Shown: positions 1,688 to 64,000 of the stretch, in pieces | Layout of the letters: each line of letters opens with the position of its first letter | Numbering within the stretch: the first letter of the stretch is position 1 | Source: Convolutriloba macropyga | Lineage: Eukaryota | Reading direction: 5' to 3' | Assembly: GCF_964194025.1 (NCBI RefSeq) | Contig: NC_134475.1 | Span: 66,588,001 to 66,652,000, forward strand | DNA length: 64,000 nucleotides | The notes under the pieces: generated by a model | What the model was told of the DNA's origin: nothing | Seen by the model: the letters and a program-made list of their open reading frames with translations, nothing else | The model's database searches: none | Program-made: the position numbers and the translations under genes

Positions 1688-1871
1688 TGCTGTCAGGCGA
1701 TTTGTTTTCTGCTTTGTGTTTTGTGTTGTTGAAATGCTGACTGTGTGGGGGGGTCTTTATTGTCCGGTGGGGGGGGGGCTTGGTCTTTGGGGTTGATTCG
1801 TGGTATTGGTCTTTGCCTTTGCCCTTGCCTTTGCCTTTGTCTTTTGATTGCGCGTTCGAGCTTGGTTATGG

Positions 1872-4619: not shown

Positions 4620-6373
4620 AATTTAGTTTATACTTCAAAGGTAAGTGTGGTAACACAATTTTATAAAAGAAAGTTTTCCGCGAAGTTAGCTGAACTTCCG
4701 GTAACTACATATAACGCTTTAAAAAAAAAGAAAACATTGAATTCCAAAATGTTACACACCTTAAAAGTATCAACAAAATGGCAATGTACAAATTCTAAAA
4801 TACATAAAACAATAAGAATATATTTTATTTACAACGTTTGGAATACTAAAAACATAGAAAAAATATATTGGATATTAAGGAAATTAAAAACAATGAAAAC
4901 TTAATAAAGGTCCCTAAACAAATCTCTGTACTCCAATGCCTTTGGGTCCTTCAGATATTCCTTGAAATAGAATTCTTTCAAAAAACCTTTGATGTTTTTA
5001 ACCTTATCGAGTTTTTGTCTTTGTTCATATGGAAATTCATTGTAGAATTTCATGGCTTGCAGCATCAATGATTTATCGAGGAATTCCGAATTACTTTTCA
5101 TAGCAGGATAACTTTTTCCCGTTCTCGCATTCTGTTTACAATTGGAAGATTGCAATACATTGTTGTTACTAAAAGCTGGTAATTGTTTCCTAACATATTT
5201 CAAGAAAAACACCATATATCGATATTTGAGAAGGAATTCAACAGGCATGATTCTGTTTTTTATTCTTAAATCATACTTTTTTCTTTTGAAACACACTTCT
5301 ATTCCCCAATTAAGTTGTTTTTCTAATGTTATCATGAGATTTGTTCTGATATCAACGAGCATAAAAGATGAGTATTGAATGTGACTTAAAACAAGCGCGT
5401 TCAATAGTGTTACTCTAGTTTTTATAGGAAAACAGTTCTTTATATTTTTCAAGAATTTGATGCTGCAGGCCATTCTGGAGAGTATTCTTTTGATCTCTTC
5501 TTTAAAGTTTAATTTGTTGTCTAATATTATTCCTAGATATATTACCGACGACGATTCTCCTATGTTCACATCGATAACATTGAGATAAGACGGAGTTCGT
5601 GCTTTTTTGATGGAGCAAACACGATATATTCTGTCTTCTTATTGTTCATCATTAATTGATGTGATTGGAAATAATAACATAGTTTTTCAATATTTTTTTC
5701 CAAATATTTTCTGGCTATATTTTCATTAGCATGAGAAGAATAGAGAAAAGTGTCATTGGCGTTTTGGATTACTTGACAATTGTCATTATCAATAGCTCTA
5801 TGATGATCATTCACATAAATGTTGAACAATATTGGTCCTAATACTGTCCCTTGTGGCACACCTCTTAAGTAAAATCCAGTCGGACTCATTTCCCGAGAAA
5901 ACTACTTTTTGAGTTCTGTCTTTCAAATATGATCTAATCAATTGTGTAGATGTTCCGTCGAATCCTAAACATTTCAATTTTTCTATTAGTATTTCGTGTG
6001 AGATTGAGTAAAATGCTTTTGAGAGATCGAAGAATGCTCCACAAACTGTATTCTTTTATCCATTTCAGTTCTTACATATTCTGTACATTGTAGTATGGCA
6101 TCTGTTGTGGACAATTTTTTCCTATATCCAAACTGTTTAGGTTACAGCGAGTTATTTGAGGTCAAATAGTCATTAATTTGGTTGCTTATAACTTGCTCAA
6201 AGATTTTTGCCAATGCGCCGGTTACTGATATTGGACGATAGTTAGTGGGATCTTCTGTGTTTCCTTTTTTTGTAAAGAGGTGAGACCAAAGCTCTTTTGA
6301 GGTCAATCGGAAAAGAAGACTCAGAAATAAACTCGTTTAATCAGAAATAAACTCGTTTAATCAGAAATAAACT
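4620..6373 (-). mobile_element. 5'-truncated, decayed non-LTR retrotransposon (CR1/L2-group LINE) RT region plus 3' UTR
   Basis: The minus strand encodes ..PLYKKGNTEDPTNYRPISV.., KQFGYRKKLSTTDA, DLSKAF, GVPQGTVLGPILFNIYVND, a degraded YADDT (NANDT) and YLGIILDNKLNF, with frameshifts and stops. Confidence 0.85.
6321..6373. repeat. 20-bp tandem repeat (TCAGAAATAAACTCGTTTAA x2.6) at the LINE 5' truncation point
   Basis: Exact copies at 6321 and 6341, and a partial copy at 6361. Confidence 0.9.
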
Positions 6374-20300: not shown

Positions 20301-21742
20301 TTTAAACTCCTTAATGGTAAGCTGGGAAAAAGTTGCACCACATACTCTTACATATATAAGGAAAGCAAAAATAGTTGTTATGTGTTGGTGTGATTTTTGT
20401 GACGGCTGACTCCGAGATATTTATTTGTGTTATCTTAGCACTAACCTCTCTTTCCCTCTCTCAGAGTAAAAATGGGGAAAAGTTATCTTCCTTTTCCCTT
20501 CCGTCCCCCCACTACCCTAGTCCATATTTTCCATGCTAATTTTGCAAGCAGAAATTGATAAGGTAACAAATTTGACAGGAGGTTTGAAAAGAGAAATACA
20601 AAGTTCTCTTTCTCTCTTACCCAAACTCACTTTTTTAGCTTCGCGTTGTTCAGTGCATATTTTGCTCAATATTATTTCATTACTACACTTAGTTAGTTTT
20701 TCAAAAAAAAATTCATTTATCAATCAAATAGTGTCAGGACAAAATACCCAACGCCAAAATGCCCAGAATGTACCCAATATTTTACCATACATCAAATTAT
20801 CAGAAAATTATCTAAGCTAATTGTACCTAAGAGACATAAATTATAGTATCGTTTTTTGTTTGAAAAACGAACACAGGGTAACCAGCGGCCTCGTTACTCT
20901 GTAATGTGACTCGATTTTATATAGTCACAAGCAAGCATGAGATCATATATTTTGTCATTGGGTAAAAAATCATTTAACAACTAAATTATGATATATTGCT
21001 CTAACCCTGTCATTATAGCCCAGATTCGTGATTAGTCTACGCTCGGAGGAGATTTAATCAGATAACGGATTAGGTGTACATTTATTTGTTGGAACCCTCT
21101 GCGCTTATTTTTACAAAGCGACTGTCAATTGAATTCAAACGTCGGCCATTATTTATCCAACCCAATTTGTTCTATTTAACTCGCTCTATCTCATTCACAA
21201 TTTTATGTCTTTTCTGCAACAAATTACAAAGCAGGTTATTCTGTTAAATAAACCCAAAGCTGTCATTTTACGTGCTTCTGGCGATTCAAAGAATCTTCCT
21301 GGAGTAATTCGTAAAAATATTTGAAAGGGACAAAACCTAGTTTGAACCTTTTGAACTGGAATCTCTCAAAACAGCCTTTTATAGCTAACAGAGCAAAGCG
21401 TCGTAAACCAGCTAGTTATAACACCTTTTATAACGACCGCAGATTAATAACCAGCTCCAGAAAGGGTTAAGGCAGTAACTGATATTGTGTACTACCAAAA
21501 AGAACCAATAGAAATTAACTGTAAAACCCAAATTTTACAACCCTGTTTCCCACTTTTACGTCAAATTTGGTTATATTTAACCGATTTATTGGTTCGAGTT
21601 ATGAATTCTGCTATGAATTTGAGGCAATTTATTAAACAGGAACATCAAACTGAATAAATTTGCTTCTTATTATCTTATAATTTACCCGGTCATCCAAATA
21701 TTATTTTACAATTAGAGACTGATAGAGCCATAATTTGCCCAA

Positions 21743-23096
21743 ATGGTTAAAGAGAAGGTTAGTTTTCTTTGTGGCAACATTAAAAAGAATATCTTGCGCC
21801 GATCGGGCACTGTTGACAATTCGGCGCCCGGCTCACCCTCGATTGCCCGAAACATCACAAGCACTTCATCATTTGACAAAAACAACACGCGAACAAGTTT
21901 AGATGACTCACGTGAAGAAATTTTGTGTATTTTTGACAAATCTTTGACATTACAACATGACTCAGACGACATTTCGACATCTTTTGAAATTCCCCCCGAA
22001 CCCCCTCCGAGGATTTATTTCCCACAAGCACGATCACCAAAGTTGACGGGGTCTCACGGGGGCGAAAGAATAGAATCTGTTCAGTTGATTCAACCTGTAA
22101 TTGAAAGTGCGAATTCAAATAACCAACATGACGACAGAACTCCCTCAGAACATTCTAGATCAACGGCTAGTGAAATCTTCAGTCATCAAGCGCCGAGTAT
22201 TTCTTCAAGTCATTCGTCTAATTCTTCGACAGAATCGTTTCATTGTGATGGTTGCCATTGTTCTAGAAAATCATCGCAGCTTCATATAGCCACATGCAGT
22301 GGAACCCACTCACATTTGCATTATTCGAAACAGATTCCCAATTATAGTTACGATGAGTACTCTAAAACTACTTCAACTTCAAGTCATCAATCGGTTTCAA
22401 TCGGAAGTTCCGACTCCTTAGACATCGGGAGTCTAGCTGCCGAACACAGTTACTCAGCCGCCCACCAAAACCGACTCTCAACCACGGACTCGATTCTCCC
22501 CCCGAGAATTAAACCTTCGGCTTTGGGTTCTTGCAGTCGTCCCGATGGTCGGCGGCGTAGCGGGTGCATCGCATCTCAACCTCAGTCGAAGAAAACGCCA
22601 TCGCCTCAACCACCCCCATTTTTACCCCCTAAGAATTTCATACCCTCCACATCGTCATCGGGTAAAAAATGCGAATGCGCAAATTGTAGATTATCGTACG
22701 TTTCATCTTCAAAGAATTCAAACAGCTCAAATCCAACGCAAGCTTGTGATACATTTTCTATAATTGACCGAAATTCGACGATCGAAAGCTTAAACATGAC
22801 GCCCTGTACGCCTAAACGAAATGCCAGATTGTGCGAAAGGAAGGTTCCGAAAGATTGTCCAGAGTATGAAAACCATTTGGAAAACTCGAAGCCTAGCGAT
22901 TCAAGCTGGCCTGAAATAGGCGAAGTAGTCCCGACAGTTTCAGCCTTTTTGCAAAGCAAGAATTGCAGCAAAAGACGAAGTTCGTTTTCAAAAAGTTTCG
23001 ACAAAGTTCCGCTGAGTTTAACAGTCCACGAAGTGTTTCAAGGTGCGGAATTTGATTCATTTTCACCGAAACTTCCCTTTTCAGAACAGATTTCAG
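21743..23096 (+). CDS. SOCS7-like gene, first coding exon (Ser/Pro-rich disordered N-terminus)
   Basis: A 452-aa ORF, very long for this AT-rich background. The acceptor TTACAATTAG ends at 21715 and there is an in-frame upstream stop. The donor CAG|GTTAGT is at 23097 (phase 1). Motifs include PPEPPPR, PPFLPPK and YEN. Confidence 0.7.
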
Positions 23097-24449
23097 GTTA
23101 GTTTTCAATTGAACGCTTTTCGGAATCTTTTTCCTTACTTTTTGTAGTTGAAAGTCATAATAAACAGATGTGATCATTAATAATGTAACTTGTAAGATTT
23201 GCTTCCGGATTCTTCTTAACAAAACAGTTCTTCTTTATGTTCAATATATTTATTCCGCAGACAACACGTTGAAGAAAAAAAATTGAGAATTAGTTTTTTG
23301 AACTATTAATTTTTTGTGGGTCCACGAAGTTAAACAATGTCTTAGTATCAAATTGTACAATAAGAGCTAATATAGAAAAAGTTTCTGGAGTCTTGGAAAA
23401 CTATTTAACTGTTTATCCTTTTATTGCTACAATAGCTTGATTGTTAAAAAATGAGCAAAATTTTTGCAAAATTTTTAGGTCATAAACTACTTCTAGACTG
23501 TTTTCTCGTAGAGATGCAATTAAGAACTAAATTTGATTCGAAATTAACAGTCAATTAGTTTTTGTGCTATAAAAGTTTACGTGAATCTTTATTTTGACAA
23601 CAATCGACTTATAATAAAATTTCTTCCATAACAATAGCATTGACAATTCTACATTTAAGTAACTCAGCTTTTGAATAGACATCAACCTATAATTTTGTGC
23701 TTTGAGCAGTACGTGATTCAAAATTTTTCTTTTACCTTTCAATTGTCACTTCATGAGCAAAGCTCAAAATTCTACGCGTTGTTTGGACTCGGATTTTACC
23801 GTCTCAAATCTCCAAATTAAATCACCGCATTTCAAGAGCATAAAAACATCACTTAAAATGCAATTGTATTTATAGAATGTAATCAAAATATGGTAAAGGT
23901 TACATTTTTTTAAACCGTGGAGTTATTCTAAGAAAAATGGGAAATCCGTAACTTTTGATTTTGAAGACAACACAAGTTTGCTCAGAAATGGGTTGTCGCC
24001 AATTGCTATGAGTTCTTTAAAGCCTTTGAAAAATTACAGTCGATAAAATTATATTTTAAGTTCGGTCGCAAATAATGATAAAAAGTATTTGAATGATTTT
24101 ATAAAGATATTCAATCTGGTTTTACTGTCAACAAATGGCCATAAATTTGACACTTTGTTTTGCATAAATTTTTCAGTCTACGTAGCATTAAAACGAAAAT
24201 GGATGTTTCTTGGTTGTTTATTGATAACATTTGGTAGCTTTCAGTTAAATAGTGGATTTGAGAGATAGCACAAGCAAAAACTACATAATTTAAGAAAAAA
24301 TTGGCAAGCTTATAAGGTAGAATCATACGCGCGATCGTAATCTCTCTGTCTCAAATAACTTCATTTCATGGTGGAAAAAATTTAGGGCCGCTATTATCTA
24401 TGTGCAGCTATCATTCCCTAGTTGAGATCTAGACTTATGAAAGTAAAGT

Positions 24450-49513: not shown

Positions 49514-51228
49514 TTTGAAAATAAGAAACATTAATATTGCATATAGTGACGCAATATTGATAAAATAAATAACTAAATCCCTAGTTGTAAAACGTTGCAA
49601 TGGGGCCAAGAGGAAAATACTGTCTGAAAACTCAAAAGTGTAAAAAGAAACAGTGACACTTATTTAGCATTTGGTAAGAGCCATCTTAGTACTGAGAGGT
49701 TCCAGCGGGAACAAATGAGAAATCAATTGTTGCGTAAAGACGAAAAAACGGAAAACGAAAAAAAATTAAACACTAAATCTGTGTATTAGGTTTTCTGGGA
49801 GTAAATTACGTATAGTAAGGACACCCATCAAACGTTTTAAAATTTTAAAACTAAATGCAAATTTGAAAAAAATATACTGGAGACATGCTCAAAAGTAAAA
49901 CCTATATCATGGCTTAATGATTCCTTGGTATAAAAACTGGGAGGCAAATTTAAAACAACCGATGTTGGACAAATCCACAATGGGCTAATTATGATTACTC
50001 ATGAACAAATTTGTCTTTGAAGAAATTTGTTACGCTTATGCTGGAGTAAAATCTTGAAAAAACTGCTGAACATTTCTGTTAAAGGTTTCAATTTTTTTAA
50101 CGGTTTTATGGTTTCAAAATTGATAGTGCCAGTTTTTTATTACTCAGAAAAAGTGATAACATTTTTGCTTCAAAGCAAAAGAATTATTCATTTATTTGAA
50201 AAAATTCAAAAAATTCGATATACAAAAATTACTTCTGAGAAAATTTCTGCTGCAGAACAGTCGGCAGTTAATTTTTGAGTCATTAGACTGGCCTTCAATA
50301 AAACAGAAATTATTTTAAAAAACTATTGAATATTTGTTATTTTAGGAATGCTTTTCATTTGTTTAATTTCGTAAAAACATAAAAAGCATTCATTTAAAAA
50401 CACTTTTTTTGACAGTCTGTAACTGCATTTAGCCATGCTTTTTTAAAGAAAAGTCCAGTCACTCAGTGTACCAAAATATAAATCTGTAGTTTAGTGAGTC
50501 AGAAATCCATTTGACGGAAACAAATTCTTTACTAAATTGTACGAGAGGCAGAAATATAATATCTGAAAACGCGGTTTATGGCGATCAATTTCTTTTTATG
50601 ACAAGAGAATATTGGATGCAAGTTCGTCTGCAACCTTATAAACAAAGTTGTCTCAAAATGTAATTGTTTATAAACATTTACCAGATGATGTTACTTTATT
50701 ATTGTAACCATAAGAGAACGAGTTTGGATTTGATTTATTCCTTCATTTTTAAAACTAATTAGATAACGTTTTTTTTCCATTTTAGGACATTTATTGGTAC
50801 TACACAATTCTTGCTATGCTTTAGTTTTGTTGTTTCAACTTTTGTACCTTTGACAAAAACTTGGTCCATAACCGTCAGAATATTAAACAACCTTGGGAAC
50901 TTCCCAAAAAGATGTGGAATGGGGATTCTGAGAAAATATGAATAGAGTTAATTATTTTTCATCACTCAAAAGATAAATATAAAAAATAAAGTTTTTCAAA
51001 ATTAAGACAACAGAAAACGTTCATTATAATTGCAATAATCTTTGAAAACTGAAAAAAATGTTCGCTCTCGTATATATCACAAAAGTGGTTACAAGGTATA
51101 AGCTGCAAAAAAATGTTCTATTTTTTACATTCTGCTTAGGGGATGGCAAAGAGTTTCTTTGAAAAGAATTTTCTCTCAAATTTTTAATTTTTGATGCGTG
51201 CAAAATTTAAATTTTTTTGGTAATTTTG

Positions 51229-52384
51229 TGTAAAATTTGTGAAAACCTACTTTTTCTCGCAAAATGTCGCAATAAAAATGGATACAACTTGAAATTCAAA
51301 AATCGGTCCTAAACAAGTTGTTAGCATCTATAATGGCTTGCATTTGAACACCATTTGGTGAATCGAATGTTGGTGGGACAAATTAAGGTGGATTTGAAAG
51401 TTGAGTAGGTAAAATAGTGATTTTCTGGGGGTGACCGAATTTATAAAAGTTAGTTATGATTCGGAATTTACCTCAACATGCTCAAACTTGATAGGGAGTT
51501 AGTGCATACCTTGAGGCAAGTTCCGCTGTTGTCAATTCCAGGGAATTTGTTTTAGAGATACCATGGGGGGAACTTTAGACTTCCAAATAAGGCTTAGATT
51601 CTTGAGTTCATAGTTTGACCGGTTGATTAATTGGTAGCGTCACGAGTCTGATACGGCTTTTGTGTTAGTTTAAATAGCTTAAGTAGAAGTCAGCAATGTA
51701 TAAAGAAGGCGTTCAGGTCATTCAATTGTTCTTTTAAAGTCATAACGAACTCTACGTAAGTGAGGACCATTTGTTGTCCATAGCAGCGGTTTGAACAAAG
51801 TTGTTGTTCACGCGTTGTAATACGTCGTGATTCGAGTAGTTGCCAAGAGGGAGTAAACCAACATGGTTGTTGTTGTGGCAGCAGAGCTATAGAAGGCTCC
51901 AAATAACTCTGACATCGTAGAGGAGTTCAACTTAAGTAATAAAAAAGAGAGAGAAGAGCTGTTGTGAAGTGAAGTTGGTCTTTCTTGATAGAAGAAAGAC
52001 TTTTGTAAAGAATATCGAGAGCCAAGAACGAGAGATTCGTGAGGCTGATATCAGAGCAGATAACTTTACTTACTCAGTTTGATTTAGAGAGTTTGGGATC
52101 TTGTGATAAATTCCATTATCTTAATTTGAATTAATTTCTGTTGCTTAAAACCCAAATTGATTTATTCTTGATTCTGTTGATTTATACTATCAAATTATAT
52201 CAATTTATCTTTGAGCAACCGAGTTGAGTCAATTTATCTTTGAGCAACCGGAGACAGAGCAAGCCGGGGACACCGTGAGTAAACTTTGTAGAAAACCTTT
52301 CCACCAAAATAAACCTTTCAAGTTAGGATTTCGGGTGGTAGTGTCTCCCCGCCTATTAACCTAGTCTAAATACGAAATTCTACA
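51229..52384 (+). repeat. 5' LTR (1156 bp)
   Basis: Starts TGTAAAATTT and ends AAATTCTACA (9/10 inverted termini). Near-identical to 62029-63173. Contains a TATA-like TATAAAG (~51699) and AATAAA (~51938, ~52308). Confidence 0.97.
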
Positions 52385-52385
52385 G

Positions 52386-52403
52386 TGGCGCTCCTGGGTG
52401 GGC
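52386..52403 (+). promoter_or_regulatory. Primer binding site, tRNA-Asn-like (TGGCGCTCCTGGGTGGGC)
   Basis: Lies 1 nt after the LTR. Its reverse complement GCCCACCCAGGAGCGCCA resembles the ..GCCCACCC(A/G)GG..CG-CCA 3' end of animal tRNA-Asn(GTT). Confidence 0.75.
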
Positions 52404-52496
52404 CGGTTCTCTTCGAGTACACTTACAATCAGTTGAGCACGGAGAGTAATCCGAGCTCCGTTCGTGACGAAGAAGTCCTGTGTTCATAAGTAAGCA

Positions 52497-53525
52497 ATGA
52501 ACGAAAACGAAAGACAGCTTTTTGCGGAGGCTGTGGTCGTGGCTCAAAACCAGTTGGCGGTTAACAACACAGCTGGCAGGCCCGAAAAGTTCCCGTCGGC
52601 GTTGTTTCCCGATTGGTTTTCATGGAAAGCCCACTTTTCATACCTCATGGACAAACATGGTTGGACGGATGAGCAGGCTCGAAGCACAATACCTACCCTT
52701 CTTGTTGGTTGGGCGATGCAGGAGTTTAATGCCATGCCCCGACACTATCGAGTTCAGGAGCAAGACCAACCCGCTCCCACTCTGGCAAGAATGATGACGT
52801 ACTTGGACCCGAGGATGTCACCCTACAGGAATCCGAGGACAGCGAGAACAGAGTTCAAGAACTTGGCCCAGGGTGAGAAAGAGGATATTCGAGAGTTCTC
52901 CAGACGGGTGAGGTCGCTTGGGGAAATTGCCAATGCCACCATGAATGCAGCTACGAGGGATAACATGAACCGAGAGCAGTTCATCGATGGGCTGTTTGAT
53001 CTAGAGATACAGGAATTGCTTCTGCGGGAGGACCCCAACACGTTCAATGATGCTGTTGATAGGGCCCTTAACATCGACGCAATCAGTCGAGGATCCAGAA
53101 TGAGGCAGCGCAGGCGGTTGACAACCACCAGGTACCTTCAACAGTCAGACCAATTCGTGGAAAGACATCATGTTCAAGCTGTGAGTGGACAAATGGAACC
53201 CGACATGATGAAGGTAGAAATGGACGAGATGAAGAAACAAGTAAAGAATCAGGCAGACATGATTAAAGGGATGTCCGAAATGATGACTAAATTTGTCAAT
53301 TCGGTAATCCCCGGACCACCGAAAGAAACAACAGGAGATCAGGACGGAAATCCGCGCCGATTGTTCAACCCGTACCCCGAAACCAGCCGCTACGGCCAGA
53401 ACTTTGGCAGCACCGATAGGAAGCAGTCTGGGACCTTAAAGCAAGGAGTCCGCTGCTACAATTGCTCTAAGATGGGACACTACGCGCGGGAATGCAACGA
53501 ACCAAAACAGAACCATTTAAACTAA
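52497..53525 (+). CDS. gag: Gag (capsid plus one CCHC zinc knuckle), 342 aa
   Basis: Gypsy-type capsid motifs (DWFSWKAHF..HGW, Q.EKEDIREFSRRV, EQFIDGL) and CYNCSKMGHYAREC. Confidence 0.95.
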   Translation: MNENERQLFAEAVVVAQNQLAVNNTAGRPEKFPSALFPDWFSWKAHFSYLMDKHGWTDEQARSTIPTLLVGWAMQEFNAMPRHYRVQEQDQPAPTLARMMTYLDPRMSPYRNPRTARTEFKNLAQGEKEDIREFSRRVRSLGEIANATMNAATRDNMNREQFIDGLFDLEIQELLLREDPNTFNDAVDRALNIDAISRGSRMRQRRRLTTTRYLQQSDQFVERHHVQAVSGQMEPDMMKVEMDEMKKQVKNQADMIKGMSEMMTKFVNSVIPGPPKETTGDQDGNPRRLFNPYPETSRYGQNFGSTDRKQSGTLKQGVRCYNCSKMGHYARECNEPKQNHLN

Positions 53526-55705
53526 GACGGGCCGGGAGTCTCCAAGGATTTAGGAAAGAAGGTTTCATCCCGGCCGAAAACAAGCAAGATTCAACTAATA
53601 ACCGTGACACTTTAAACGATATAGAAGCAGTCAACAAACTACCGGAACCACGGTTTCTCAAACCCAAAGTTGCAGTGAAGGGGGAACCAGACAAACGAAC
53701 TGGAAGTATTACAGTTACGGGGGAGGTAAATGGGACTCCAATAGAGATTTTGGTGGACACAGGAGCTTCAACCAATATGATAAGATCTTCCACATTTGAC
53801 CAACTTAAGGAACCGCGAAAACTGATGCGGTACCGTGGACTACTGGAAGCAGCTGACGGTCGGTATGTAAACGTTACAGGATCAGCAACAATTCATCTCA
53901 AAATGGGTGGTATTGATGACGAGTGTGAAGTCCTTATAATTGACGGACTCAAAACGGAAATGATTCTCGGACTCAGGGATCTTCAAAAGCATAATTGTGT
54001 AATCGATTTGCAGGCCAACCAATTGTGGACAGCCCCAGTGGAGTCAGCTATAATACCGTTGAACAGCGGAAAATTGTGGGGAACTTCGCAGAATGGTAAC
54101 ACGAAGCCGACACATAAAGCCGAAACGAGAGAAGCGGTCCACCAGATCCTGGAAAAAGTTGGCAAGGAAGACCAAGTAGAGGTTATGATGGCCTCTGGGA
54201 GTATCTACGATGAGGATGGTGAGCATGACGACAACTTAGGACCTAACAGAGAAGAGGAAGAGGAGACCTTAGCTGAAGGGGCGATTAGAGGCCAACAAAA
54301 CTTATGTCTAAATTCAGGGGATGAGGTCAAGATGCAAGCTGGTGAAGATGTTGTTCCTCTAAATTCACCTGAACAGGAAGCCGAGCAAATTTTGAAGAAA
54401 TGTGCCCCGGAAGCACGAGGAGATCACTGGATAGCACTGCGGGACCTTGTCATCAAATACAGAGACGTGTTTGCCTTGGATGATTCCGAGCTGGGATCTA
54501 CCGCCGTGGTCGAGCATCGGATTGAAACGGGTAGCAGTAAGCCTATCAAGGTACCGCCACACCGAATCTCACCAGCTAGGATACCAATCATCCGGGAAGA
54601 AATTCGAAAAATGTTAGCGAGAGGGGTCATACAGCCATCAAGAAGTCCGTATAGTGCGCCAATCGTACTACAGAAGAAGAAAGACGGGAGCTGGAGGTTC
54701 TGTGTGGATTATAGGAAACTGAATGATGTCACTGTGAAGGATGCCTATCCGATGCCTAACCAAGCCCAAGTGTTTGATGCTCTGAGAGGAAATGCATTTT
54801 TCTCTTCTGTGGATCTAGCAAGTGGATATTGGCAAGTTCCTGTAGCCGCCGAACATAGACATAAGACCGCTTTTGTTACCCCAGACGGAGGTCTCTATGA
54901 GTACGTCCGAATGCCCTTTGGCCTGTCAAATGCGCCCGCAACCTTCCAACGACTTATGAACGAGCTATTTCAGCAGGGTCTCTACCAAACTAATCTCATC
55001 TTTCTGGACGATGTCCTCACCTATAGCAAGACGGCAGAAGATCACTTGAAGCATCTCGAAGAAGTGTTCGTGACGTTACGTAATGCAAATTTAAAATTGA
55101 AGCCGAAGAAGTGTCAGCTTTTCCAGAGACAGGTGGTGTACCTAGGTCACGTCATCGGAGTAGATGGAACGTCCCCCGACCCCGAGAAGACGTCAAAAGT
55201 TAAGGAATGGCCCGTTCCCAAGACAGTGAGAGATGTCCGGTCCTTTATTGGATTTGCTAACTACTGTCGAAGATTCATCAAGAACTTTGCAAGCATCGCC
55301 AAACCCTTGCATGATTTGACTAAGAAGAGTGCACGATTTGAGTGGACCCCAGCTCAGCAAGCATCTTTTGACCAGTTGAGATTAGAGCTGGTGACTGCCC
55401 CCGTTCTCCAGTACCCAGACTATTCAGGTTCATTCATTGTAGACACTGACGCCAGTAATGTTAGCATTGGGGCAGTACTTTCCAACGAAATCAATGGAGT
55501 GGATCGACCCCTGGTGTTTTCGTCACGAGTGTTAAGCAGGACAGAGATGATGTACTCGACCACCAAAAGAGAGGCTTTGGCGGTAATACAGGCCCTGAAG
55601 TGGTACCGACCATATCTGTTGGGTGTTCCATTCGTCCTAAGAACTGACCACGCCAGCTTGCGTTGGATGTTTCGACAGGACGCGGATGGGATGACTTTCA
55701 GATGA
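53492..55705 (+). CDS. pol: Pol part 1: aspartic protease, reverse transcriptase, most of RNase H
   Basis: LVDTGAS; RFCVDYRKLN, DLASGYWQV, MPFGLSNAPATFQ, FLDD; DTDAS..KREALA..TDH. Confidence 0.95.
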   Translation: MQRTKTEPFKLRRAGSLQGFRKEGFIPAENKQDSTNNRDTLNDIEAVNKLPEPRFLKPKVAVKGEPDKRTGSITVTGEVNGTPIEILVDTGASTNMIRSSTFDQLKEPRKLMRYRGLLEAADGRYVNVTGSATIHLKMGGIDDECEVLIIDGLKTEMILGLRDLQKHNCVIDLQANQLWTAPVESAIIPLNSGKLWGTSQNGNTKPTHKAETREAVHQILEKVGKEDQVEVMMASGSIYDEDGEHDDNLGPNREEEEETLAEGAIRGQQNLCLNSGDEVKMQAGEDVVPLNSPEQEAEQILKKCAPEARGDHWIALRDLVIKYRDVFALDDSELGSTAVVEHRIETGSSKPIKVPPHRISPARIPIIREEIRKMLARGVIQPSRSPYSAPIVLQKKKDGSWRFCVDYRKLNDVTVKDAYPMPNQAQVFDALRGNAFFSSVDLASGYWQVPVAAEHRHKTAFVTPDGGLYEYVRMPFGLSNAPATFQRLMNELFQQGLYQTNLIFLDDVLTYSKTAEDHLKHLEEVFVTLRNANLKLKPKKCQLFQRQVVYLGHVIGVDGTSPDPEKTSKVKEWPVPKTVRDVRSFIGFANYCRRFIKNFASIAKPLHDLTKKSARFEWTPAQQASFDQLRLELVTAPVLQYPDYSGSFIVDTDASNVSIGAVLSNEINGVDRPLVFSSRVLSRTEMMYSTTKREALAVIQALKWYRPYLLGVPFVLRTDHASLRWMFRQDADGMTFR
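53516..53575 (+). promoter_or_regulatory. -1 programmed ribosomal frameshift signal
   Basis: Slippery heptamer T TTA AAC (53516-53522) immediately before the gag stop, a 7-nt spacer, then the stem GGCCGGGA (53530-53537)/TCCCGGCC (53568-53575). Pol is in the -1 frame. Confidence 0.85.
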
Positions 55706-57768
55706 TTCAGAAGCTTCAGGAATTTGACTTCATGTTTGTGCACAGAGCAGGCAATCAACATGGCAATGCTGACGGTTTATCAAGACGCACGTCAGAAGAA
55801 CCAGACTGGGCTCCCGGGGAGAGAGAAGAATTGACTGGTAGTTGTCCTGAGCCTGTTTCCCTAGAAGTGGCTTTGGCAAGAACCCGAGAATCCTGTGGAA
55901 TGATCCGAGAAGAAGTGGGAGGAGGCGCCGACTCGGAGGAAGATGCACTGGATGGTCAAGCAATAGTTTGGAGTAGAGAGACGCCTGATGTAGAGAAAAT
56001 GCAGCAGGAGGACGAAGCTATTAGCAGAGTTTTCCTGTGGCTTCCCTATAATCCGGGAGGAGATCTTGAGAGTTTTGGTTCCAACTTAGTGACGCGAGAA
56101 GAAGCAGTGCAGCATGGGCCCGAAGTATTGGCATATTGGTCTAGATGGAACGAACTCACCGTGAGGAAAGGCATCCTCTACCGGCGATGGTATTGCTGGG
56201 ACGGAAAACCCCCAATACTTCAAATCGTTGTTCCCGTAGTGGGCCGGAAGGAAATTCTTGATCAGTTGCACGCATCCCCAGTCAGTGGGGGGCACTTTGC
56301 TGTAGAGAAGACGTTAAGGAGAATCCGCCAACGTTTCTGGTGGCCACACATGAGACAAGATGTTGAAAAGAAGCTAGCGTGGTGTCTGCCGTGTGCAGCT
56401 AGGACTACAGCTGGGAGGAAGAGGATTGGAGGACTTGTGCCATTTAAAGTTGGGATACGATTCCACACGGTTGCAGCAGATATCTTGGGTCCAGTTACGA
56501 TGGCCAACGAAACGCGAGCCAAGCACATATTAGTCATGACAGATTTGTTCACGAAGTATGTGGTCAGTGTCCCATTGAAGGGTACTGAAGCACCCGATGT
56601 AGCAAAAGAGATTGTGGAAAGTTGGATTTTGCGATTTGGTGTACCTGACGTACTTCACACGGATCAGGGAAAGAACTTTGGGAGTGAGCTCATGCTGGAG
56701 GTCTGCAGGCTGTTGAAAATTGATAAAACTAGGACCTCACCATATCACCCTCAAGGCAACGGGCAAGTGGAGAGGCACAATCGGGTGATTGCCGATGTCA
56801 TCTCGAAGTATTGTGCGGACAACCCGCGAACATGGGATAAACTGTTACCCTATTTAAGTTTTATTTACAACACCACAATTCACAGGACTACACAAGCAAC
56901 TCCTTACAGCCTTGTGTATGGACAGGAGTGCCAGTACCCCATAGACTTATTCTATCCAAAGCCCCACGACGAAGAACTTACAAGAGACAGCTTTGCGGAG
57001 GATTTGTCACGCTTATTCAGAGAGGCTCATGCATCCGCTAGGGAATCTCTAGGAGTAAACCAGAGGAGGCAGAAGGATCAATACCACAAGAAAGTCTATG
57101 GGAAACCATATGAAAAGCAGGACAAAGTGTGGGTTTACTCAAAGCATAAAGCAAAATCTCGGAAGTTCTTCCTACCGTGGGAGGGTCCTTATGTAGTTTT
57201 AGAACGAACATCGGAGGTTAATTACAAAGTAGCGAAACCAAGTCAAATGGCAAAATGGAGGATACTACACTACAATATGCTCAAACCGTACCTGGAGGAA
57301 GGCGATGCTTGGAGCCCAAAGGAAAAGAAGAGGACTACGGCTCCCAGGTCCGAAGGGTTTCTTGAACATCCAGGCGTAGATCAAGACGAGTGGGAAGAGG
57401 AGGGATTCGATCTACGCCCAACAGAGCAGAATGCCAGGATGCGACGCCTTGTACAGAGAAGGGAACGAAATGAAGGGGTTGAGGAGGACGTGCCGAATTT
57501 GGAGGAACTGTTTCACGAGCAAGTTGTAACGGAACCAGCCAGGGTACCGGAGGAAATTCCAACTGATGGGGGCAGGCTGGAAGCGCCAGTAACTGCTGAC
57601 GATGCACGAGTAGAGTCACCTCTTCGTGAACCAGGGCAACTAGCCCAAGCCCAGCCATCGGGTGTTCCTGAACCTAGGGAGGTAACAGTAGTCTCTCAAG
57701 ATACGGGACCTGCAAGACGACCCAGACGAGAGATCCGCCCAGTCATTCGGCTGGGTATTGACGAATAA
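55702..57768 (+). CDS. pol: Pol part 2: RNase H end, integrase (HHCC, DDE, GPY/F) and acidic tail; separated from part 1 by a 1-bp frameshift
   Basis: IQKLQEFDF..HRAG..HGNADGLSR; H..GGH..CLPC; ADILGP, TDQG, YHPQGNGQVER; WEGPY. Confidence 0.93.
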   Translation: MIQKLQEFDFMFVHRAGNQHGNADGLSRRTSEEPDWAPGEREELTGSCPEPVSLEVALARTRESCGMIREEVGGGADSEEDALDGQAIVWSRETPDVEKMQQEDEAISRVFLWLPYNPGGDLESFGSNLVTREEAVQHGPEVLAYWSRWNELTVRKGILYRRWYCWDGKPPILQIVVPVVGRKEILDQLHASPVSGGHFAVEKTLRRIRQRFWWPHMRQDVEKKLAWCLPCAARTTAGRKRIGGLVPFKVGIRFHTVAADILGPVTMANETRAKHILVMTDLFTKYVVSVPLKGTEAPDVAKEIVESWILRFGVPDVLHTDQGKNFGSELMLEVCRLLKIDKTRTSPYHPQGNGQVERHNRVIADVISKYCADNPRTWDKLLPYLSFIYNTTIHRTTQATPYSLVYGQECQYPIDLFYPKPHDEELTRDSFAEDLSRLFREAHASARESLGVNQRRQKDQYHKKVYGKPYEKQDKVWVYSKHKAKSRKFFLPWEGPYVVLERTSEVNYKVAKPSQMAKWRILHYNMLKPYLEEGDAWSPKEKKRTTAPRSEGFLEHPGVDQDEWEEEGFDLRPTEQNARMRRLVQRRERNEGVEEDVPNLEELFHEQVVTEPARVPEEIPTDGGRLEAPVTADDARVESPLREPGQLAQAQPSGVPEPREVTVVSQDTGPARRPRREIRPVIRLGIDE

Positions 57769-57877
57769 CTAATAGCAATGGGAGGAGGCACTACCACCTA
57801 CTAACAACTTAACGCAACACTTTTTAGTTATCGACCCCAACTAACGACAGGCTGTTTAGGATTCATTCAACCGGACA

Positions 57878-60202
57878 ATGCTGACTTTCAACCTCATTCT
57901 GATTTCAATTGCGGTGATGGGACCGATGGAAGCAATGAAGCTGGAAGGTATCTCTTTCAATCATACGGCAGGAGCGGCTTTCACCACGGAGACGCCAGTA
58001 ATCATAGCTAGTGCCATGGAGTCGACTTGGGTGTCCATCCCTTTTCCTATTCTTCCGGCTATCAACAAGACCCACCTAGACGTTGCCTTTCAAGAATTTC
58101 AATTCAAGTTTGCGAAACGCTGGAACGGTTACTACAAACAACGAATCTGTGGAAACAAGGAACTGACGCAGAGCTATATCAATGTCACTTACATAGCACT
58201 CAAGGGTATAGAATACGAAGTGGACGACATTGCTCGAGTGCTAGCAGAAATGAAGATACGGGCCGAAACGTTCATCAATGGTTCTTTACACATTCACAGT
58301 AGGGAGCGACGATGGGTGAAACCACTGTTGATTGGAGCCGCGGCCGCCATCGTTCTGGCTCCGGTCCTCAAGCAGGGATTCTGTCACTACTTCTCATTCT
58401 TTGGATTTTGTGGAGGAAGGCAAGCAATTGACGAGTTAGGACGGGAGGCAGAGTTTCTTGACAAAGCTGTCAGGACGATAACTTTGGAAACCGGGGAGCG
58501 GATTCATTTGCTTGGGCATTCACTTAACAAGACCCAGAACCAGTTGAAAATGGTTTCTCACGATGCGAATGCGAACTTCCAAATGATCCGGGATGCGATG
58601 AATCGGTTGTTGGAGGAAACCGACGGAGCTTTGGATGGCCAGCGGCTATGCGTCAGTTCGAAACATCACGATGTCTACCAGGAGGCTTCACGATTTTCAA
58701 CGGCCATGCTAAATTACTCGCAAGCTTTGAACGCACTGCGGGAGGAACTTATTGCTTTCAAAATCGGGTTGCACAACTTTGGATACATTTTGGATGATGC
58801 GTTGTCTTCATTGACAAGGGGACTAATTCCAGCTACCCTAATTCCCCCAGAAGTATTGCAGAAGGTCCTTGATGGTTTGAAACTAGACAGGATGCGGGAA
58901 GCCATACCTCGATCCGAGCTGATGACCTACTACGGATTTGAGCTAGTGGATTCTACAGTGATAACGACCACGGGGATTAACGTACTCGTAAATATCCCTC
59001 TTCATCACACTAGCGGATTGTACCATGTCTATCGAGCTGTGGCGTTGCCCCAACCTATTGACGATGGAGTTACGGCAACCCAATATTTGTTCCGAAAGTC
59101 TCACCCTTTAGTTTCGGAGAGAAGAGACCATTTCGCTGAAGTGTCGGAAGAGAAAATTAATTCGCACTGTGTAGGAACTAACCGTCTGAAGTTGTGTCTG
59201 AAACCATTCTCAATGTCCCGAACGAGTGAAGCCACTTGTCTATCCAGCTTGTTTTTTGACTTACCTGCCGCCGCCCTGAAGCTGTGCCCGCAGGAAGTTG
59301 TTGTACTACCAGAGGAGCCAACAGCGGACTACTTAGACGATTCGACTTACTTGGTTACAGCGAGGTCTTCTGCCTACAAGTTCTTCAATTTTACTTATGG
59401 GTTGAAGCAAACTGGTTACCCAGTTCCTGGATGTCGTAGCTGTTTGCTCCGGCCACCTTGCGATGGACGATTTGAGAACCCCAGTGGAACTCTAATTCTG
59501 TACCCGGACCCCAGGACATGTCAGTACAGCAGCGGAATGATGATCAATATCCAGCAACATCCTTTGCTGCGCACCCTATTTGCTACGCTAAGGAAAGTGG
59601 AATCCGAAAGAGTAGGAGCAGAGATCCCCAATGCTTTTCGTGATCAGGCTCATGGAGAAATGCTAGAGGTTCTAAGACTTAACCTGATCGAATTGCCCGA
59701 AGAGACTGTGGACGAGGAAAGTATGGAGCGGATCTCTCGTCCTTTTGCCGAAGGAATTATTAACCAACACATGCCTTTTCATTGGAGTGCATATCATAGC
59801 CGACCAGCCAATGTTGTGGTGTGGTTCTTATTAGCCATAGTCCTGTTCTTCATGGCATACCTTTTCTATCGATCTTGTATGAAGAACCCCGCCCCGCTGT
59901 ATAAGAGACTTTTCCGACAACAAAGGAACCGCTTTCCGTGGTCGAGGATACCCCGAGATGACAGTACTGACTTTTCATCGAGACCTGGCACCGGTCAACC
60001 TGGCTTTTCACCACCTCTTGGAGCTCCACCCAGCTTCAACTCGATTTTCGAACTGAATGAGGCGGCTATCTCGCCGGCGTCGATGTCGGAGACCCCAAGA
60101 CGTGACACAAGCACGGGAATGGGCATGAGAGTGAAGAGAGTGTCGCTACCCCAGGAGAGGTCTTTCTCACCTGGTGAACAATTGCGTGGTGGGGAGTTAT
60201 GA
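57878..60202 (+). CDS. env: Envelope glycoprotein, class I fusion (F-type) architecture, 774 aa
   Basis: Signal peptide; furin site RERR (58301-58312) followed by the hydrophobic fusion peptide WVKPLLIGAAAAIVLAPVL; heptad-rich helix; Cys-rich domain; several N-x-S/T sequons; TM VVVWFLLAIVLFFMAYLFY (~59813-59869); long cytoplasmic tail. Confidence 0.9.
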   Translation: MLTFNLILISIAVMGPMEAMKLEGISFNHTAGAAFTTETPVIIASAMESTWVSIPFPILPAINKTHLDVAFQEFQFKFAKRWNGYYKQRICGNKELTQSYINVTYIALKGIEYEVDDIARVLAEMKIRAETFINGSLHIHSRERRWVKPLLIGAAAAIVLAPVLKQGFCHYFSFFGFCGGRQAIDELGREAEFLDKAVRTITLETGERIHLLGHSLNKTQNQLKMVSHDANANFQMIRDAMNRLLEETDGALDGQRLCVSSKHHDVYQEASRFSTAMLNYSQALNALREELIAFKIGLHNFGYILDDALSSLTRGLIPATLIPPEVLQKVLDGLKLDRMREAIPRSELMTYYGFELVDSTVITTTGINVLVNIPLHHTSGLYHVYRAVALPQPIDDGVTATQYLFRKSHPLVSERRDHFAEVSEEKINSHCVGTNRLKLCLKPFSMSRTSEATCLSSLFFDLPAAALKLCPQEVVVLPEEPTADYLDDSTYLVTARSSAYKFFNFTYGLKQTGYPVPGCRSCLLRPPCDGRFENPSGTLILYPDPRTCQYSSGMMINIQQHPLLRTLFATLRKVESERVGAEIPNAFRDQAHGEMLEVLRLNLIELPEETVDEESMERISRPFAEGIINQHMPFHWSAYHSRPANVVVWFLLAIVLFFMAYLFYRSCMKNPAPLYKRLFRQQRNRFPWSRIPRDDSTDFSSRPGTGQPGFSPPLGAPPSFNSIFELNEAAISPASMSETPRRDTSTGMGMRVKRVSLPQERSFSPGEQLRGGEL

Positions 60203-60736
60203 GAAGCAACCGGTTCCTGTACTAGTGGATAATACTCAGACTTAAGCTTGTATACTTTGACCTTGATCACTCTGACTTCGACTTCTTATGTGGTAGGCCT
60301 TAATCACCCTTTACTTCTAGTGTTTAATTAGAGTGTTACTTGTTACTTTCATTGTATATAGATAAAAAGAATTGAAGCGCCAGACTAGAACAACCCCCCC
60401 CCCACCAATGCAGTAATTGATATCAATTGTTTTAGGGAGTATGCAGGGTAACTCCAATGGGTTTTTACAACCCCCCCTTTAACTCCTAGGCGGAATGGGT
60501 ATAAGACTGCGCTTCATTGTAAATATATTTTTTTATGTAGTGTTACTTGTATATACGAGATCTATATGATCTTATTTGAAAATCCCAAACTCTCGAAAAC
60601 TGATCGATGGGTAAAAGGGAGAAAAACTAAAATATTTTAAGTATATAAGATACGTAAGCATCGGTAAGGCTACAAGAGTAAAGGAAGAAGTAAGTATGGA
60701 TTAGAGGGTTGAAATATAGGGGGAGGCGAGCAAGGA

Positions 60737-61021
60737 TTATTCCTTTCTGCGGTTGGGGAACACAACTCGTGGTCTCAGATCATCTAGTAAGCTTATGACA
60801 TCCCACGAGCTATTCAACTGACCCGAATTAAATAGGCCTTCGACCAAGCTGAGAAATTCGTAAGTCTCGTATGTGCTGAACATTAAGCTATCAATTGAGT
60901 CAGGGTCAATGACAATAGTAAACTCGTAATAATTTGTGGGACTTTCCTGAATTTGAATATTAGAAAATCCCTCCCCAACCAAAGTTTCTAACGCCGGAAT
61001 GTAATATTTGGTGTCGGTCAT
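60737..61021 (-). CDS. Antisense accessory ORF-A, 94 aa, unknown function
   Basis: ATG-to-TAA ORF inside the element, with globular-looking acidic/aromatic composition and a basic C-terminus (RPRVVFPNRRKE). No homologue recognised. Confidence 0.5.
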   Translation of the reverse strand: MTDTKYYIPALETLVGEGFSNIQIQESPTNYYEFTIVIDPDSIDSLMFSTYETYEFLSLVEGLFNSGQLNSSWDVISLLDDLRPRVVFPNRRKE

Positions 61022-61405
61022 TTGTATTTGTTTTGCTGTGATAAGATATAAGGTGTTGTTTACAATGAAAGCTTTGGAACAATGAGATATTTAAACAGTA
61101 GAAGTCAAAATAAGCACGCGTTGGTTGTACAAAGAAGTGATTTCTGTTCATTTTTTTGCTGTTGAAAACTAATGAGCTCTATTCAGCTTTGAGTTGATTG
61201 TTCTGCAAGCAATTACTAAAGACTAATGAGATTCAAGAAGAACGAAACTGGTGTAAGTGACCGAGGAGAGGATAAACTGTGTGGAGAATGAGAAAATCAG
61301 AAAGTAGACAATTCATTTTGGTTCTCTTTATCGTAACGCTAAGTTCAGTAACTTAGGCTTCAGAAAGTTGAAGAGTGAAATTATAACAGCCAACGCCCGT
61401 TCGTG

Positions 61406-61855
61406 ATGGATCTAACAATGTACCCGGTGATCCCCGAATACCATCCGGATGAGTTCGAGGATGAGGAGAAATGGGTGTGGGAGTCCTTTATGTTGGGACT
61501 GAGGTTACGAATCAAAATGATCCGTGTGTCCTTCCACTATCTGATAGTGGAGTTGAGGGAAGACGGTGGATTTGTCCTTCTGGAGGAGGGGAGTGGCCCA
61601 TGGCACGAGCTGAGGGGCTTCCTATCGAAGGATTGGTCGGCCAATTCCAGTGAGATTGCAGAGGAGGGCGATGGAGCTAGTTCCTTCCATCCAAGTGTTG
61701 GCTCAGAGAGTATCGATTCGCTGAGGGTGGGGTCTACCGACAGGCTTACCAGCTACTCCTCCTACTTCGAAGAGCTATCGACGGAGTCGGAGAGTGGAGG
61801 AGTTTTTGAACTAGAGTCTATTTCCAGCGAAGATGACTGCGTTTTTGTCAGCTAA
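61406..61855 (+). CDS. Sense accessory ORF-B, ~149 aa acidic Ser-rich protein, unknown function
   Basis: ATG at 61406 (alternative ACAATG start at 61418). A GC-richer block coincides with the ORF, which ends ~170 nt before the 3' LTR. Confidence 0.6.
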   Translation: MDLTMYPVIPEYHPDEFEDEEKWVWESFMLGLRLRIKMIRVSFHYLIVELREDGGFVLLEEGSGPWHELRGFLSKDWSANSSEIAEEGDGASSFHPSVGSESIDSLRVGSTDRLTSYSSYFEELSTESESGGVFELESISSEDDCVFVS

Positions 61856-62016
61856 AGTTTCACGATTGGTGGAAAAGAGGCTGATTTGATCCTAAATTCT
61901 ATAGTATATTATTATTAAAATCAAATTAAAGCGAATGGGACAGGGGGTCAAGGTAGTATGAGTATAGTGAGTAGTCTTTTTCTAAGTTTAGCAATTATTC
62001 GGGAGAATAATAGTCT

Positions 62017-62028
62017 AGAAGGGAGGAG
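62017..62028 (+). promoter_or_regulatory. Polypurine tract AGAAGGGAGGAG
   Basis: Directly abuts the TG of the 3' LTR. Confidence 0.9.
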
Positions 62029-63173
62029 TGTAAAATTTGTGAAAACCTACTTTTTCTCGCAAAATGTCGCAATAAAAATGGATACAACTTGAAATTCAAA
62101 AATCGGTCCTAAACAAGTTGTTAGCATCTATAATGGCTTGCATTTGAACACCATTTGGTGAATCGAATGTTGGTGGGACAAATTAAGGTGGATTTGAAAG
62201 TTGAGTAGGTAAAATAGTGATTTTCTGGGGGTGACCGAATTTATAAAAGTTAGTTATGATTCGGAATTTACCTCAACATGCTCAAACTTGATAGGGAGTT
62301 AGTGCATACCTTGAGGCAAGTTCCGCTGTTGTCAATTCCAGGGAATTTGTTTTAGAGATACCATGGGGGGAACTTTAGACTTCCAAATAAGGCTTAGATT
62401 CTTGAGTTCATAGTTTGACCGGTTGATTAATTGGTAGCGTCATGAGTCTGATACGGCTTTTGTGTTAGTTTAAATAGCTTAAGTAGAAGTCAGCAATGTA
62501 TAAAGAAGGCGTTCAGGTCATTCAATTGTTCTTTTAAAGTCATAACGAACTCTACGTAAGTGAGGACCATTTGTTGTCCATAGCAGCGGTTTGAACAAAG
62601 TTGTTGTTCACGCGTTGTAATACGTCGTGATTCGAGTAGTTGCCAAGAGGGAGTAAACCAACATGGTTGTTATTGTGGCAGCAGAGCTATAGAAGGCTCC
62701 AAATAACTCTGACATCGTAGAGGAGTTCAACTTAAGTAATAAAAAAGAGAGAGAGAAGAGCTGTTGTGAAGTGAAGTTGGTCTTTCTTGATAGAAGAATG
62801 ACTTTTGTAAAGAATATCGAGAGCCAAGAACGAGAGGTTCGTGAGGCTGATATCAGAGCAGATAACTTTACTTACTCAGTTTGATTTAGAGAGTTTGGGA
62901 TCTTGTGATAAATTCCATTATCTTAATTTGAATTAATTTCTGTTGCTTAAAACCCAAATTGATTTATTCTTGATTCTGTTGATTTATACTATCAAATTAT
63001 ATCAATTTATCTTTGAGCAACCGAGTTGATTCTGAGCCGGAGACAGAGCAAGCCGGGGACACCGTGAGTAAACTTTGTAGAAAACCTTTCCACCAAAATA
63101 AACCTTTCAAGTTAGGATTTCGGGTGGTAGTGTCTCCCCGCCTATTAACCTAGTCTAAATACGAAATTCTACA
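62029..63173 (+). repeat. 3' LTR (1145 bp)
   Basis: Near-identical to the 5' LTR and followed by the TSD TTTTG. Confidence 0.97.
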
Positions 63174-64000
63174 TTTTGTAACAATCCATAGCACACAAAG
63201 ACATTCACCTGATTAGTGGCGTTTGAAGCACCTAATTAGACAGGACATATTTTAAGGGTCCAATCATTTATACTTTCAAAATAAAGGGTCAACCTTTTGC
63301 ATATCACATAATGAACCTGAGAATTGAGACAAACGAAAAGATTCGCTGGCTTACATCTGCAATTTGTTGCATTCCAGTTTTGACAAAATCCGGCAGGAGA
63401 AAACACGTGGAAAGCGGAGTGATTTCTCTAAATTTGCCTGAACCATTTTTTATTTTACCATTCATTAGCCAACTGACCCGTCTGAGTCATCATCAAGTTC
63501 GTATTTTTTTAAGATAAGGGGTTTTGCCCAAATGTCAAACTTTTCTCTTTTGCTTGGAATTGTTTTTCACTATCAGTTTTCTATTTTCCTTATTTTAATA
63601 CATTTTGGGTTTTTTCATCGGTGGAAATCTCATCTTGTTTTGCTTCTAATTTTTTTCTATAATGAAAATAAGTTATTAAGCTCTGAGATAGAATGTGACT
63701 CGCAGAATGACCTGAGGATCAGTTTTTGTTTGTATTTTTTTGTTGAAACTTTTGTTGAATTATTGGTTCCGGGCCCTAAGCTAAGAAGACTGAAATACGA
63801 CGTTAAAAAAACCTTGGTATGTTCAGATTGTTCGATTTGGCAGGCAACAGTTGGTAATTTTGGCCTGGAACCTAAGAAGGATTTGGTAGGTTCGGTTTCG
63901 CAAGATTCGGTATGTTCCCTTTGAATCGTAAAGATAAACAATTTTTTATCGTACGAAAATTTGAGTTTTTCTGTATATAATGTAGTAAAATTTCCGATTG

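Follow-up and report, generated by a model that had tools for sequence, protein, structure and literature searches.

We describe an endogenous retrovirus-like element at positions 51229-63173 of a 64,000-nucleotide stretch of the genome of the acoel Convolutriloba macropyga (NC_134475.1; hereafter the window). It belongs to a Ty3/gypsy family of long terminal repeat (LTR) elements that has recently spread to multiple copies. Its env is under purifying selection, and its genome holds, besides gag, pol, and env, two further open reading frames (ORFs), one antisense and one sense ('ORF5'). Both extra ORFs are constrained and the five-ORF organization is a trait of the family, with the stronger case for ORF5. 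We consider it probable that this is a recently active, env-bearing family with a complex genome that moves by cell-to-cell infection and makes two accessory proteins. The Ty3/gypsy backbone and the F-type env class are known; what appears to be new is the phylum, Xenacoelomorpha, and accessory genes supported by selection, of which the sister families hold still more.

Organization of the element

The features of the element, in window coordinates, are:

51224..51228, + strand: 5' target site duplication (TSD), TTTTG, a 5-bp repeat found on either side of the element
51229..52384, + strand: 5' LTR, 1156 nt, TG...CA
52386..52403, + strand: primer-binding site (PBS), 18 nt, complement of host tRNA-Asn(GTT)
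52497..53525, + strand: gag, 342 aa, with a C-terminal CCHC knuckle (Pfam)
53516..53522, + strand: slippery heptamer TTTAAAC immediately before the gag stop, with pol in the -1 frame
53471..57768, + strand: pol, protease (PR)-reverse transcriptase (RT)-RNase H-integrase (IN), with a GPY motif and an acidic C-terminal tail; frameshifted near 55.7 kb
57878..60202, + strand: env, 774 aa, predicted F-type class I fusogen
60737..61021, - strand: antisense accessory ORF, 94 aa from Met, acidic, no transmembrane (TM) segment
61022..61405, no strand: non-coding spacer, 384 bp, separating the two head-to-head ORFs; putative internal promoter acting in both directions
61406..61855, + strand: sense accessory ORF, 'ORF5', 149 aa
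62017..62028, + strand: polypurine tract (PPT), ending at the 3' LTR edge
62029..63173, + strand: 3' LTR, 1145 nt, TG...CA
63174..63178, + strand: 3' TSD, TTTTG

An earlier note, made from the window sequence alone, had recognized a complete provirus with near-identical LTRs, and we find the same: TTTTG stands on both sides and the LTR pair differs by 5 substitutions and 3 indels. The CCHC Gag (zf-CCHC, Pfam E 6e-6), the 5-bp TSD, the tRNA-Asn-like PBS, and the FLDD motif of RT that it listed are likewise present. TG...CA LTRs, PBS, PPT, and TSD, together with PR, RT, RNase H, and a GPY-bearing integrase in that order, place the element in the Metaviridae (Ty3/gypsy).

All 18 nt of the PBS are perfectly complementary to a host tRNA-Asn(GTT) gene plus CCA. 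At six loci sharing the end of the primer tRNA, the tRNA calls were tRNA-Asn in five and tRNA-Thr in one; an earlier set of 10 loci examined for the primer tRNA held no tRNA gene. Genome-wide, the PBS 15-mer is present 407 times, in 63 cases within a tRNA T-loop context, and tRNA-Asn-like 3' ends stand in tandem arrays at G000:C6:47616978-47640067 and C13:12469437-12671724.

The position of TTTAAAC suggests that Gag-Pol is made by programmed -1 frameshifting; a stimulating hairpin 3' of the heptamer was not significant (z -1.1). The earlier note missed that pol is split here: a frameshift near 55.7 kb, within RNase H, leaves one frame of 744 aa and another of 706 aa, each measured from stop to stop. 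The same position is read through in 10 of 10 other copies. Unless the assembly contains an error near 55.7 kb, the copy at 51229-63173 is probably non-autonomous.

A recently spread, multi-copy family

We searched the genome with the 1.8-kb region between env and the LTR and scored 40 of 334 candidates, so that copy counts are lower bounds. At least 13 copies match this region at 97% identity or more and at least 9 at 92-94%, followed by an older tail down to 68%. Ten young copies were examined in detail. A 5-bp TSD flanks eight of them (the flanks are mismatched in one and masked in one), and in nine the two LTRs are 0-6 substitutions apart, compared to 77 in the tenth, an apparent recombinant. 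In either fetched half, none of the five ORFs is broken in 4 of the 10, and env is uninterrupted in 7. Uninterrupted ORFs in multiple near-identical copies are found in the family, not in the copy at 51229-63173. The earlier note had named, as grounds for rejecting its reading, further copies without env and without the extra ORFs; the copies counted here do not bear this out. One older family copy, at G000:C5:46571500-46581200, has its accessory region duplicated in tandem.

Env is a predicted F-type fusogen under purifying selection

The 774-aa Env ORF is uninterrupted, as had been claimed. It begins with a hydrophobic segment and has a furin site, RERR, at residues 142-145, immediately followed by a fusion-peptide-like hydrophobic peak. 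N-glycosylation sequons number 7, the TM segment lies at about 646-664, and the tail is long, about 110 aa. Its earlier description as F-type holds by structure and by profile search and does not hold by Pfam alone, where this Env is not recognizable (Baculo_F E 0.52). Among 71 aligned Env relatives, 8 match Baculo_F, and a profile built from the relatives finds the PDB 'fusion protein' entries 9w4d and 9w4c (E 1.5e-9), which appear to be baculovirus F. An AF2 model of the ectodomain reached a predicted local distance difference test (pLDDT) score of 83.4, compared to 38 for a single-sequence Env model. In Foldseek the Env model matched paramyxo-/pneumovirus F (E 7e-8) and a baculovirus F model (E 1e-14); chu-like glycoprotein models also matched. 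The best VIA score was to the F protein of human metapneumovirus (Z 10.1; root-mean-square deviation 6.6, 375 aligned residues). Because of these structure matches, and not of Pfam alone, we assign Env, as modeled, to the F-type class I fusogens.

Changes shared among copies arose mostly during replication of the lineage. For these, the ratio of non-synonymous to synonymous rates (dN/dS) in env is 0.09, in young and old comparisons alike; in integrase it is 0.01. Private changes give about 0.8. Env is under purifying selection, and the value for shared changes indicates that env was required for spread of the family until recently. This conservation suggests that the family is infectious. It is possible that the family copies itself only inside germline or stem cells and that Env is either a relic or serves a purpose other than infection, for example membrane targeting or the blocking of receptors. 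Such a reading would fit one further family copy that lacks most of env and retains the extra ORFs, an observation that weighs against our main reading, and it would fit a four-copy tandem array of a related family (family B, below) in which half of env is deleted. It does not fit a dN/dS of 0.09 that holds even between the two youngest subfamilies (40 synonymous and 15 non-synonymous changes), the retention of furin site, hydrophobic peptide, and TM segment alike, or the seven of ten other copies with uninterrupted env, and we regard it as improbable.

Two constrained ORFs between env and the 3' LTR

Two ORFs of more than 90 aa lie in the 1.83 kb that separates env from the 3' LTR, arranged head to head with 384 bp between them. 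We take these, one running from 61021 to 60737 on the - strand and one at 61406-61855 on the + strand, to be the two further ORFs of the earlier note, so that one of them is antisense. In 20 diverged stretches picked by DNA match, we counted frameshifting indels shared by at least two copies. The antisense ORF has none in 282 bp and ORF5 none in 447 bp (0 in 729 bp), compared to 46 in 1091 bp for three spacers and 26 in 1143 bp for the LTR; the 384-bp spacer between the ORFs has 13, and its codon signal is not significant. The expected numbers are 11.9 for the antisense ORF and 18.8 for ORF5 (Poisson P 7e-6 and 7e-9), and excluding homopolymer sites leaves P at 1e-3 and 2e-5. Private indels, by comparison, occur at 7.8 per 100 bp in the antisense ORF, 5.1 in ORF5, and 8.1-9.1 in the spacers. 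From env to the end of the LTR, no intervals free of shared indels are longer than 61349-61854 and 60723-61031, and these two match the ORFs.

Further evidence differs between the two. For ORF5, synonymous changes are in excess when protein-picked stretches are included (p 0.001, in a biased set), and residues 25-88 are homologous to an ORF behind env in family B (32% identity, hhalign P 86%, E 4.6e-6) that has no similarity at the DNA level. The ORF5 protein consists of an N-terminal conserved domain of about 65 aa and an acidic, Ser-rich tail (32 D/E); like the antisense product, it is acidic overall and lacks a TM segment. A large protein database gave 9 ORF5 matches among 35 candidates, all from ENA and apparently of the same lineage. 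For the antisense ORF, shared stops in its frame number 0-1 where 3-7 are expected, and its ATG is retained in 26 of 31 aligned copies. Start and stop codons are mostly kept. By eye, ORF5, the antisense ORF, and three other ORFs of the sister families resembled one another; hhalign supported the pairing of ORF5 with the family B ORF only.

Several results weigh against coding function, most of them for the antisense ORF. Its synonymous excess is weak in the 20 DNA-picked copies (p 0.15-0.20) and reaches p 0.015-0.034 only after 17 protein-picked stretches are added, a selection that biases the test. Of the changes in it that separate the two youngest subfamilies, 1 is synonymous and 10 are non-synonymous, a pattern expected of a relaxed, a fast-evolving, or a non-coding sequence, and hhalign detected no homologue of it in the sister families. 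The ORF5 signal is also weak in the DNA-picked set (p 0.013-0.10). The third-longest indel-free interval, 283 bp, falls in the LTR. Neither protein has a family or fold by Pfam, PHROGs, or PDB profile search (the best PDB profile match of ORF5 is at E 0.31), and ESM Atlas features gave nothing for ORF5. Candidate splice sites and TATA boxes around the two ORFs are conserved not clearly above background.

These points bear on the alternative that the element is of simple gag-pol-env organization and that its additional 1.8 kb is under constraint as RNA or DNA, for example by packaging signals, export signals, or an enhancer, with one or both ORFs incidental. The weak or reversed codon signal makes this most plausible for the antisense ORF, and an equally long indel-free stretch in the LTR and the lack of a homologue outside the lineage speak for it as well. 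It does not predict that indel-free intervals fit the ORF boundaries within tens of bases, that shared stops are depleted from the antisense frame, or that ORF5 is homologous to a sister-family ORF at the protein level only; we judge it unlikely. ORF5, then, is very likely a real gene, and the antisense ORF a likely one. The 283-bp interval of the LTR lies at 62387-62670 and has TATAAA at 62499; it is possibly a promoter region.

Related env-bearing families in the same genome

A search for env, in which 71 of 1725 candidates were scored and 20 sister stretches examined, revealed further env-bearing families: D (about 68% identity), B (about 64%), and C (about 57%). All three have a tRNA-Asn PBS, a CCHC Gag, and FLDD, and B and C a 5-bp TSD. 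In an RT tree of 72 sequences, the four host families form one clade (support 0.965) with no named member inside. At this point one may ask whether the element is instead an exogenous, horizontally transmitted acoel virus that is endogenizing only now. Very young copies, a complex genome, and a long Env tail would be in keeping with this. The family nonetheless has an unbroken series of older copies down to about 70% DNA identity, and at least four env-bearing families with a tRNA-Asn PBS share one genome, both of which suggest that residence in the genome has been long; we regard an exogenous virus as very unlikely.

Accessory ORFs behind env differ among the families: B has two sense and one antisense, C a head-to-head antisense/sense pair, and D none. 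The sets lie between env and LTR at L051:3106-4724 in B and L055:3279-4490 in C, and their ORFs, though different, are constrained. The sister LTRs are long (B 3357, C 3346, D about 3724 bp), and inside those of all three is an antisense gene of about 295 codons (L051:960-1850, +; L055:1883-2820, +; L061:5548-6444, -), which is under purifying selection. Eight accessory ORFs were tested in families B and C, and seven have a synonymous excess (p 0.001-0.03; the eighth, 0.09); none of the non-coding controls of these families reached significance. In the short LTR of the element at 51229-63173, no remnant of the sister LTR genes was detected.

The N-terminal half of the antisense LTR gene is integrase zinc-binding-like in Pfam (E 2e-4 and 5e-3, below the cut-off), and an invariant Asn-Cys and a His are found in the C-terminal half. 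Among its Atlas neighbors is a viral cluster (score 0.91) in which 19% of members bear OTU, and neither Pfam nor the PDB gave an OTU match. OTU-protease-like identity of the C-terminal half is a lead from sequence features, not an assignment. OTU domains occur in Ginger1 transposases (PMC2836005), and a Ginger1-type OTU is a possible source of the sister families' LTR gene. A canonical GT-AG intron of 62 nt, on the antisense strand, interrupts the gene in family C (5 of 5 copies examined), which implies a spliced antisense mRNA and hence antisense transcription in the clade. The family C LTR also has a basic sense ORF starting MARTK in 7 stretches (e.g., L056:2464-2787, -), a start that we take to resemble the histone H3 tail. 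In family B, the corresponding place of the LTR is occupied by a different basic ORF (L051:1946-2296, -).

The family B array stands at G000:C2:17261000-17307000 (L066), where four tandem copies are spaced 11.9 kb apart; half of env is deleted, and the internal deletion fuses pol in frame with the C-terminal half of env in a 1513-aa open frame. Two sequences from other sources, P0192 and P0194, have a related Pol (65% over RT-RNase H) together with a GDSL/SGNH hydrolase domain, recalling rotifer LTR elements.

A possible life cycle

We propose the following cycle, in which expression and accessory-gene function are read from the sequence. Genomic RNA driven by the LTR would give Gag and, by -1 frameshifting at UUUAAAC, Gag-Pol; reverse transcription would be primed by tRNA-Asn and the PPT, and integration would produce the 5-bp TSD. 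The copy at 51229-63173 would need Pol supplied by other copies. env would be translated from a subgenomic RNA, spliced or internally promoted (an acceptor-like pyrimidine-rich site stands upstream of env in all four families), and Env, once cleaved by furin, would mediate entry into another cell of the same animal, so that germline or stem cells are reached. The two small, acidic, soluble proteins would come from separate transcripts, most simply from a divergent promoter in the 384-bp spacer, and would act inside the host cell as regulators of the element or as antagonists of host defense, as in complex retroviruses. As a guess, a role as trans-activator or adaptor would be in keeping with the acidic tail of ORF5.

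It is tempting to speculate further, though we lean against holding the whole of it true, that acoels harbor a clade of infectious Ty3/gypsy viruses whose complex genomes evolved independently of those of vertebrate retroviruses. Sense/antisense accessory modules would be swapped between env and LTR and inside the 3.3-3.7-kb LTRs, and an OTU-like deubiquitinase with a zinc finger and a basic H3-tail-like protein would counter ubiquitin-based and chromatin silencing.

Comparison with known elements

The closest described class is that of the 'ancient errantiviruses' (Chary and Hayashi, eLife RP108449, PMC13524379), a set of 1512 Ty3/gypsy elements with env from across animals, of which many have an F-type env and a few use tRNA-Asn primers. 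The element shares with them gag-pol-env, an F-type env with furin site and fusion peptide, young multi-copy families, and variable tRNA primers, and by the operational definition (gag-pol-env with an F- or gB-type env) it is one of them. The general kind of element is therefore already known. That survey also describes RNase H followed by a 'mini' domain, not a pseudo-RNase H, and has a Pol tree labeled A1-A11; here Pfam finds one RNase H stretch at the sequence level, and about 150 aa separate RNase H from the integrase zinc finger. Odin and lokiretroviruses require a dual RNase H, a tether plus an acquired RNase H (PMC9040795), and with a single stretch by Pfam we rejected that identity. 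Xenacoelomorpha are absent from the genome list of PMC13524379 and acoels from all 7 of its supplements (0 of 7). The portion of its text available to us makes no mention of accessory, antisense, or OTU genes; for a longer version, the word 'accessory' is listed twice.

The Drosophila errantiviruses (gypsy, ZAM, Idefix; PMC3383448) resemble the element in a three-ORF backbone, an F-related env, and a germline-infection model. They differ in a Gag with an Arg-rich region and no zinc knuckle and in tRNA-Lys/Ser primers, and according to that review accessory genes have not been shown for them. Of the traits of insect Errantivirus (gypsy and 17.6 groups), the element has the F-related env and lacks both the CCHC-free Gag and the tRNA-Lys/Ser primer. 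Given its CCHC Gag, tRNA-Asn PBS, and acoel host, it is not an insect errantivirus, as the earlier note held. That note went on to suggest a separate lineage of invertebrate retrovirus; the exclusion from insect errantiviruses stands, and the rest was mostly anticipated by the ancient errantiviruses. Overall, its observation is partly confirmed and its interpretation partly supported.

Oikopleura Tor elements (PMC4402516) are also env-bearing Ty3/gypsy elements with a furin-cleaved glycoprotein and a 4-5-bp TSD, and provide a precedent for an internal promoter; unlike the element here, they have no extra ORFs mentioned in the part of the paper at hand. Rotifer TelKA (PMC5408684) has, as here, a paramyxovirus-like F env, and the extra genes of rotifer elements are alternative ORF3 types. 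In plant Tat/Retand/Grande elements (PMC7264820), antisense ORFs that have a promoter to themselves lie between pol and the 3' LTR; the hosts are plants, and an F-type fusogen is absent. C. elegans Cer1 (PMC10309623) makes an extra regulatory protein, CERV, on which genomic RNA export depends, from a spliced sense mRNA. Accessory genes in invertebrate elements therefore have a precedent.

Complex vertebrate retroviruses carry small genes 3' of env, extending into U3 or antisense, such as nef of human immunodeficiency virus and the antisense gene of human T-lymphotropic virus, and foamy viruses have an internal promoter. The likeness is in organization only, since Pol here is of the Ty3/gypsy type. 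The element does have conserved genes beyond gag-pol-env, as complex retroviruses do, and more firmly so for ORF5 than for the antisense ORF. By analogy, we read the family, with its selected accessory genes, as more like complex vertebrate retroviruses than like the simple invertebrate elements so far described.

Gypsy elements make up 28% of one acoel genome (PMC6451197), with element detail absent from the part of that paper seen. In the literature searched, which did not include subscription journals, bioRxiv supplements, Repbase, Dfam, or GyDB (a database consensus may exist), we found no acoel LTR element described as carrying env or accessory genes. The range of env-bearing Ty3/gypsy elements now includes Xenacoelomorpha, a phylum outside the one broad survey and one that matters for the claim that the env-pol association is older than the split of bilaterians from other animals. 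The evidence from selection shows that invertebrate errantivirus-like elements can hold several accessory genes, including antisense and LTR-borne ones. If it is true that these genes counter host defenses, they would be pointers to the antiviral and silencing pathways of a bilaterian that branched off early and has pluripotent stem cells.

Other features

Elsewhere in the window, 22-1756 (-) has fragmented gag-like ORFs with Cys/His motifs that we take to be from a BEL/Pao element, and 4901-5901 (-) has fragments presumably of a non-LTR reverse transcriptase. A 455-aa Ser/Pro-rich open frame at 21734-23101 (+) is probably a host exon. The mitochondrial COX1 of the assembly, translated with the invertebrate code, fits an acoel host: it shares 91% identity with Symsagittifera roscoffensis, a convolutid acoel (phylum Xenacoelomorpha), 75% with Baltalimania, and no more than about 68% with named non-acoels. 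Weak further support comes from a decayed nuclear copy of COX1 (L072, L073), which lies outside the window on a chromosome-scale contig at G000:C13:6185865-6187742 and is 72% identical to the mitochondrial contig.

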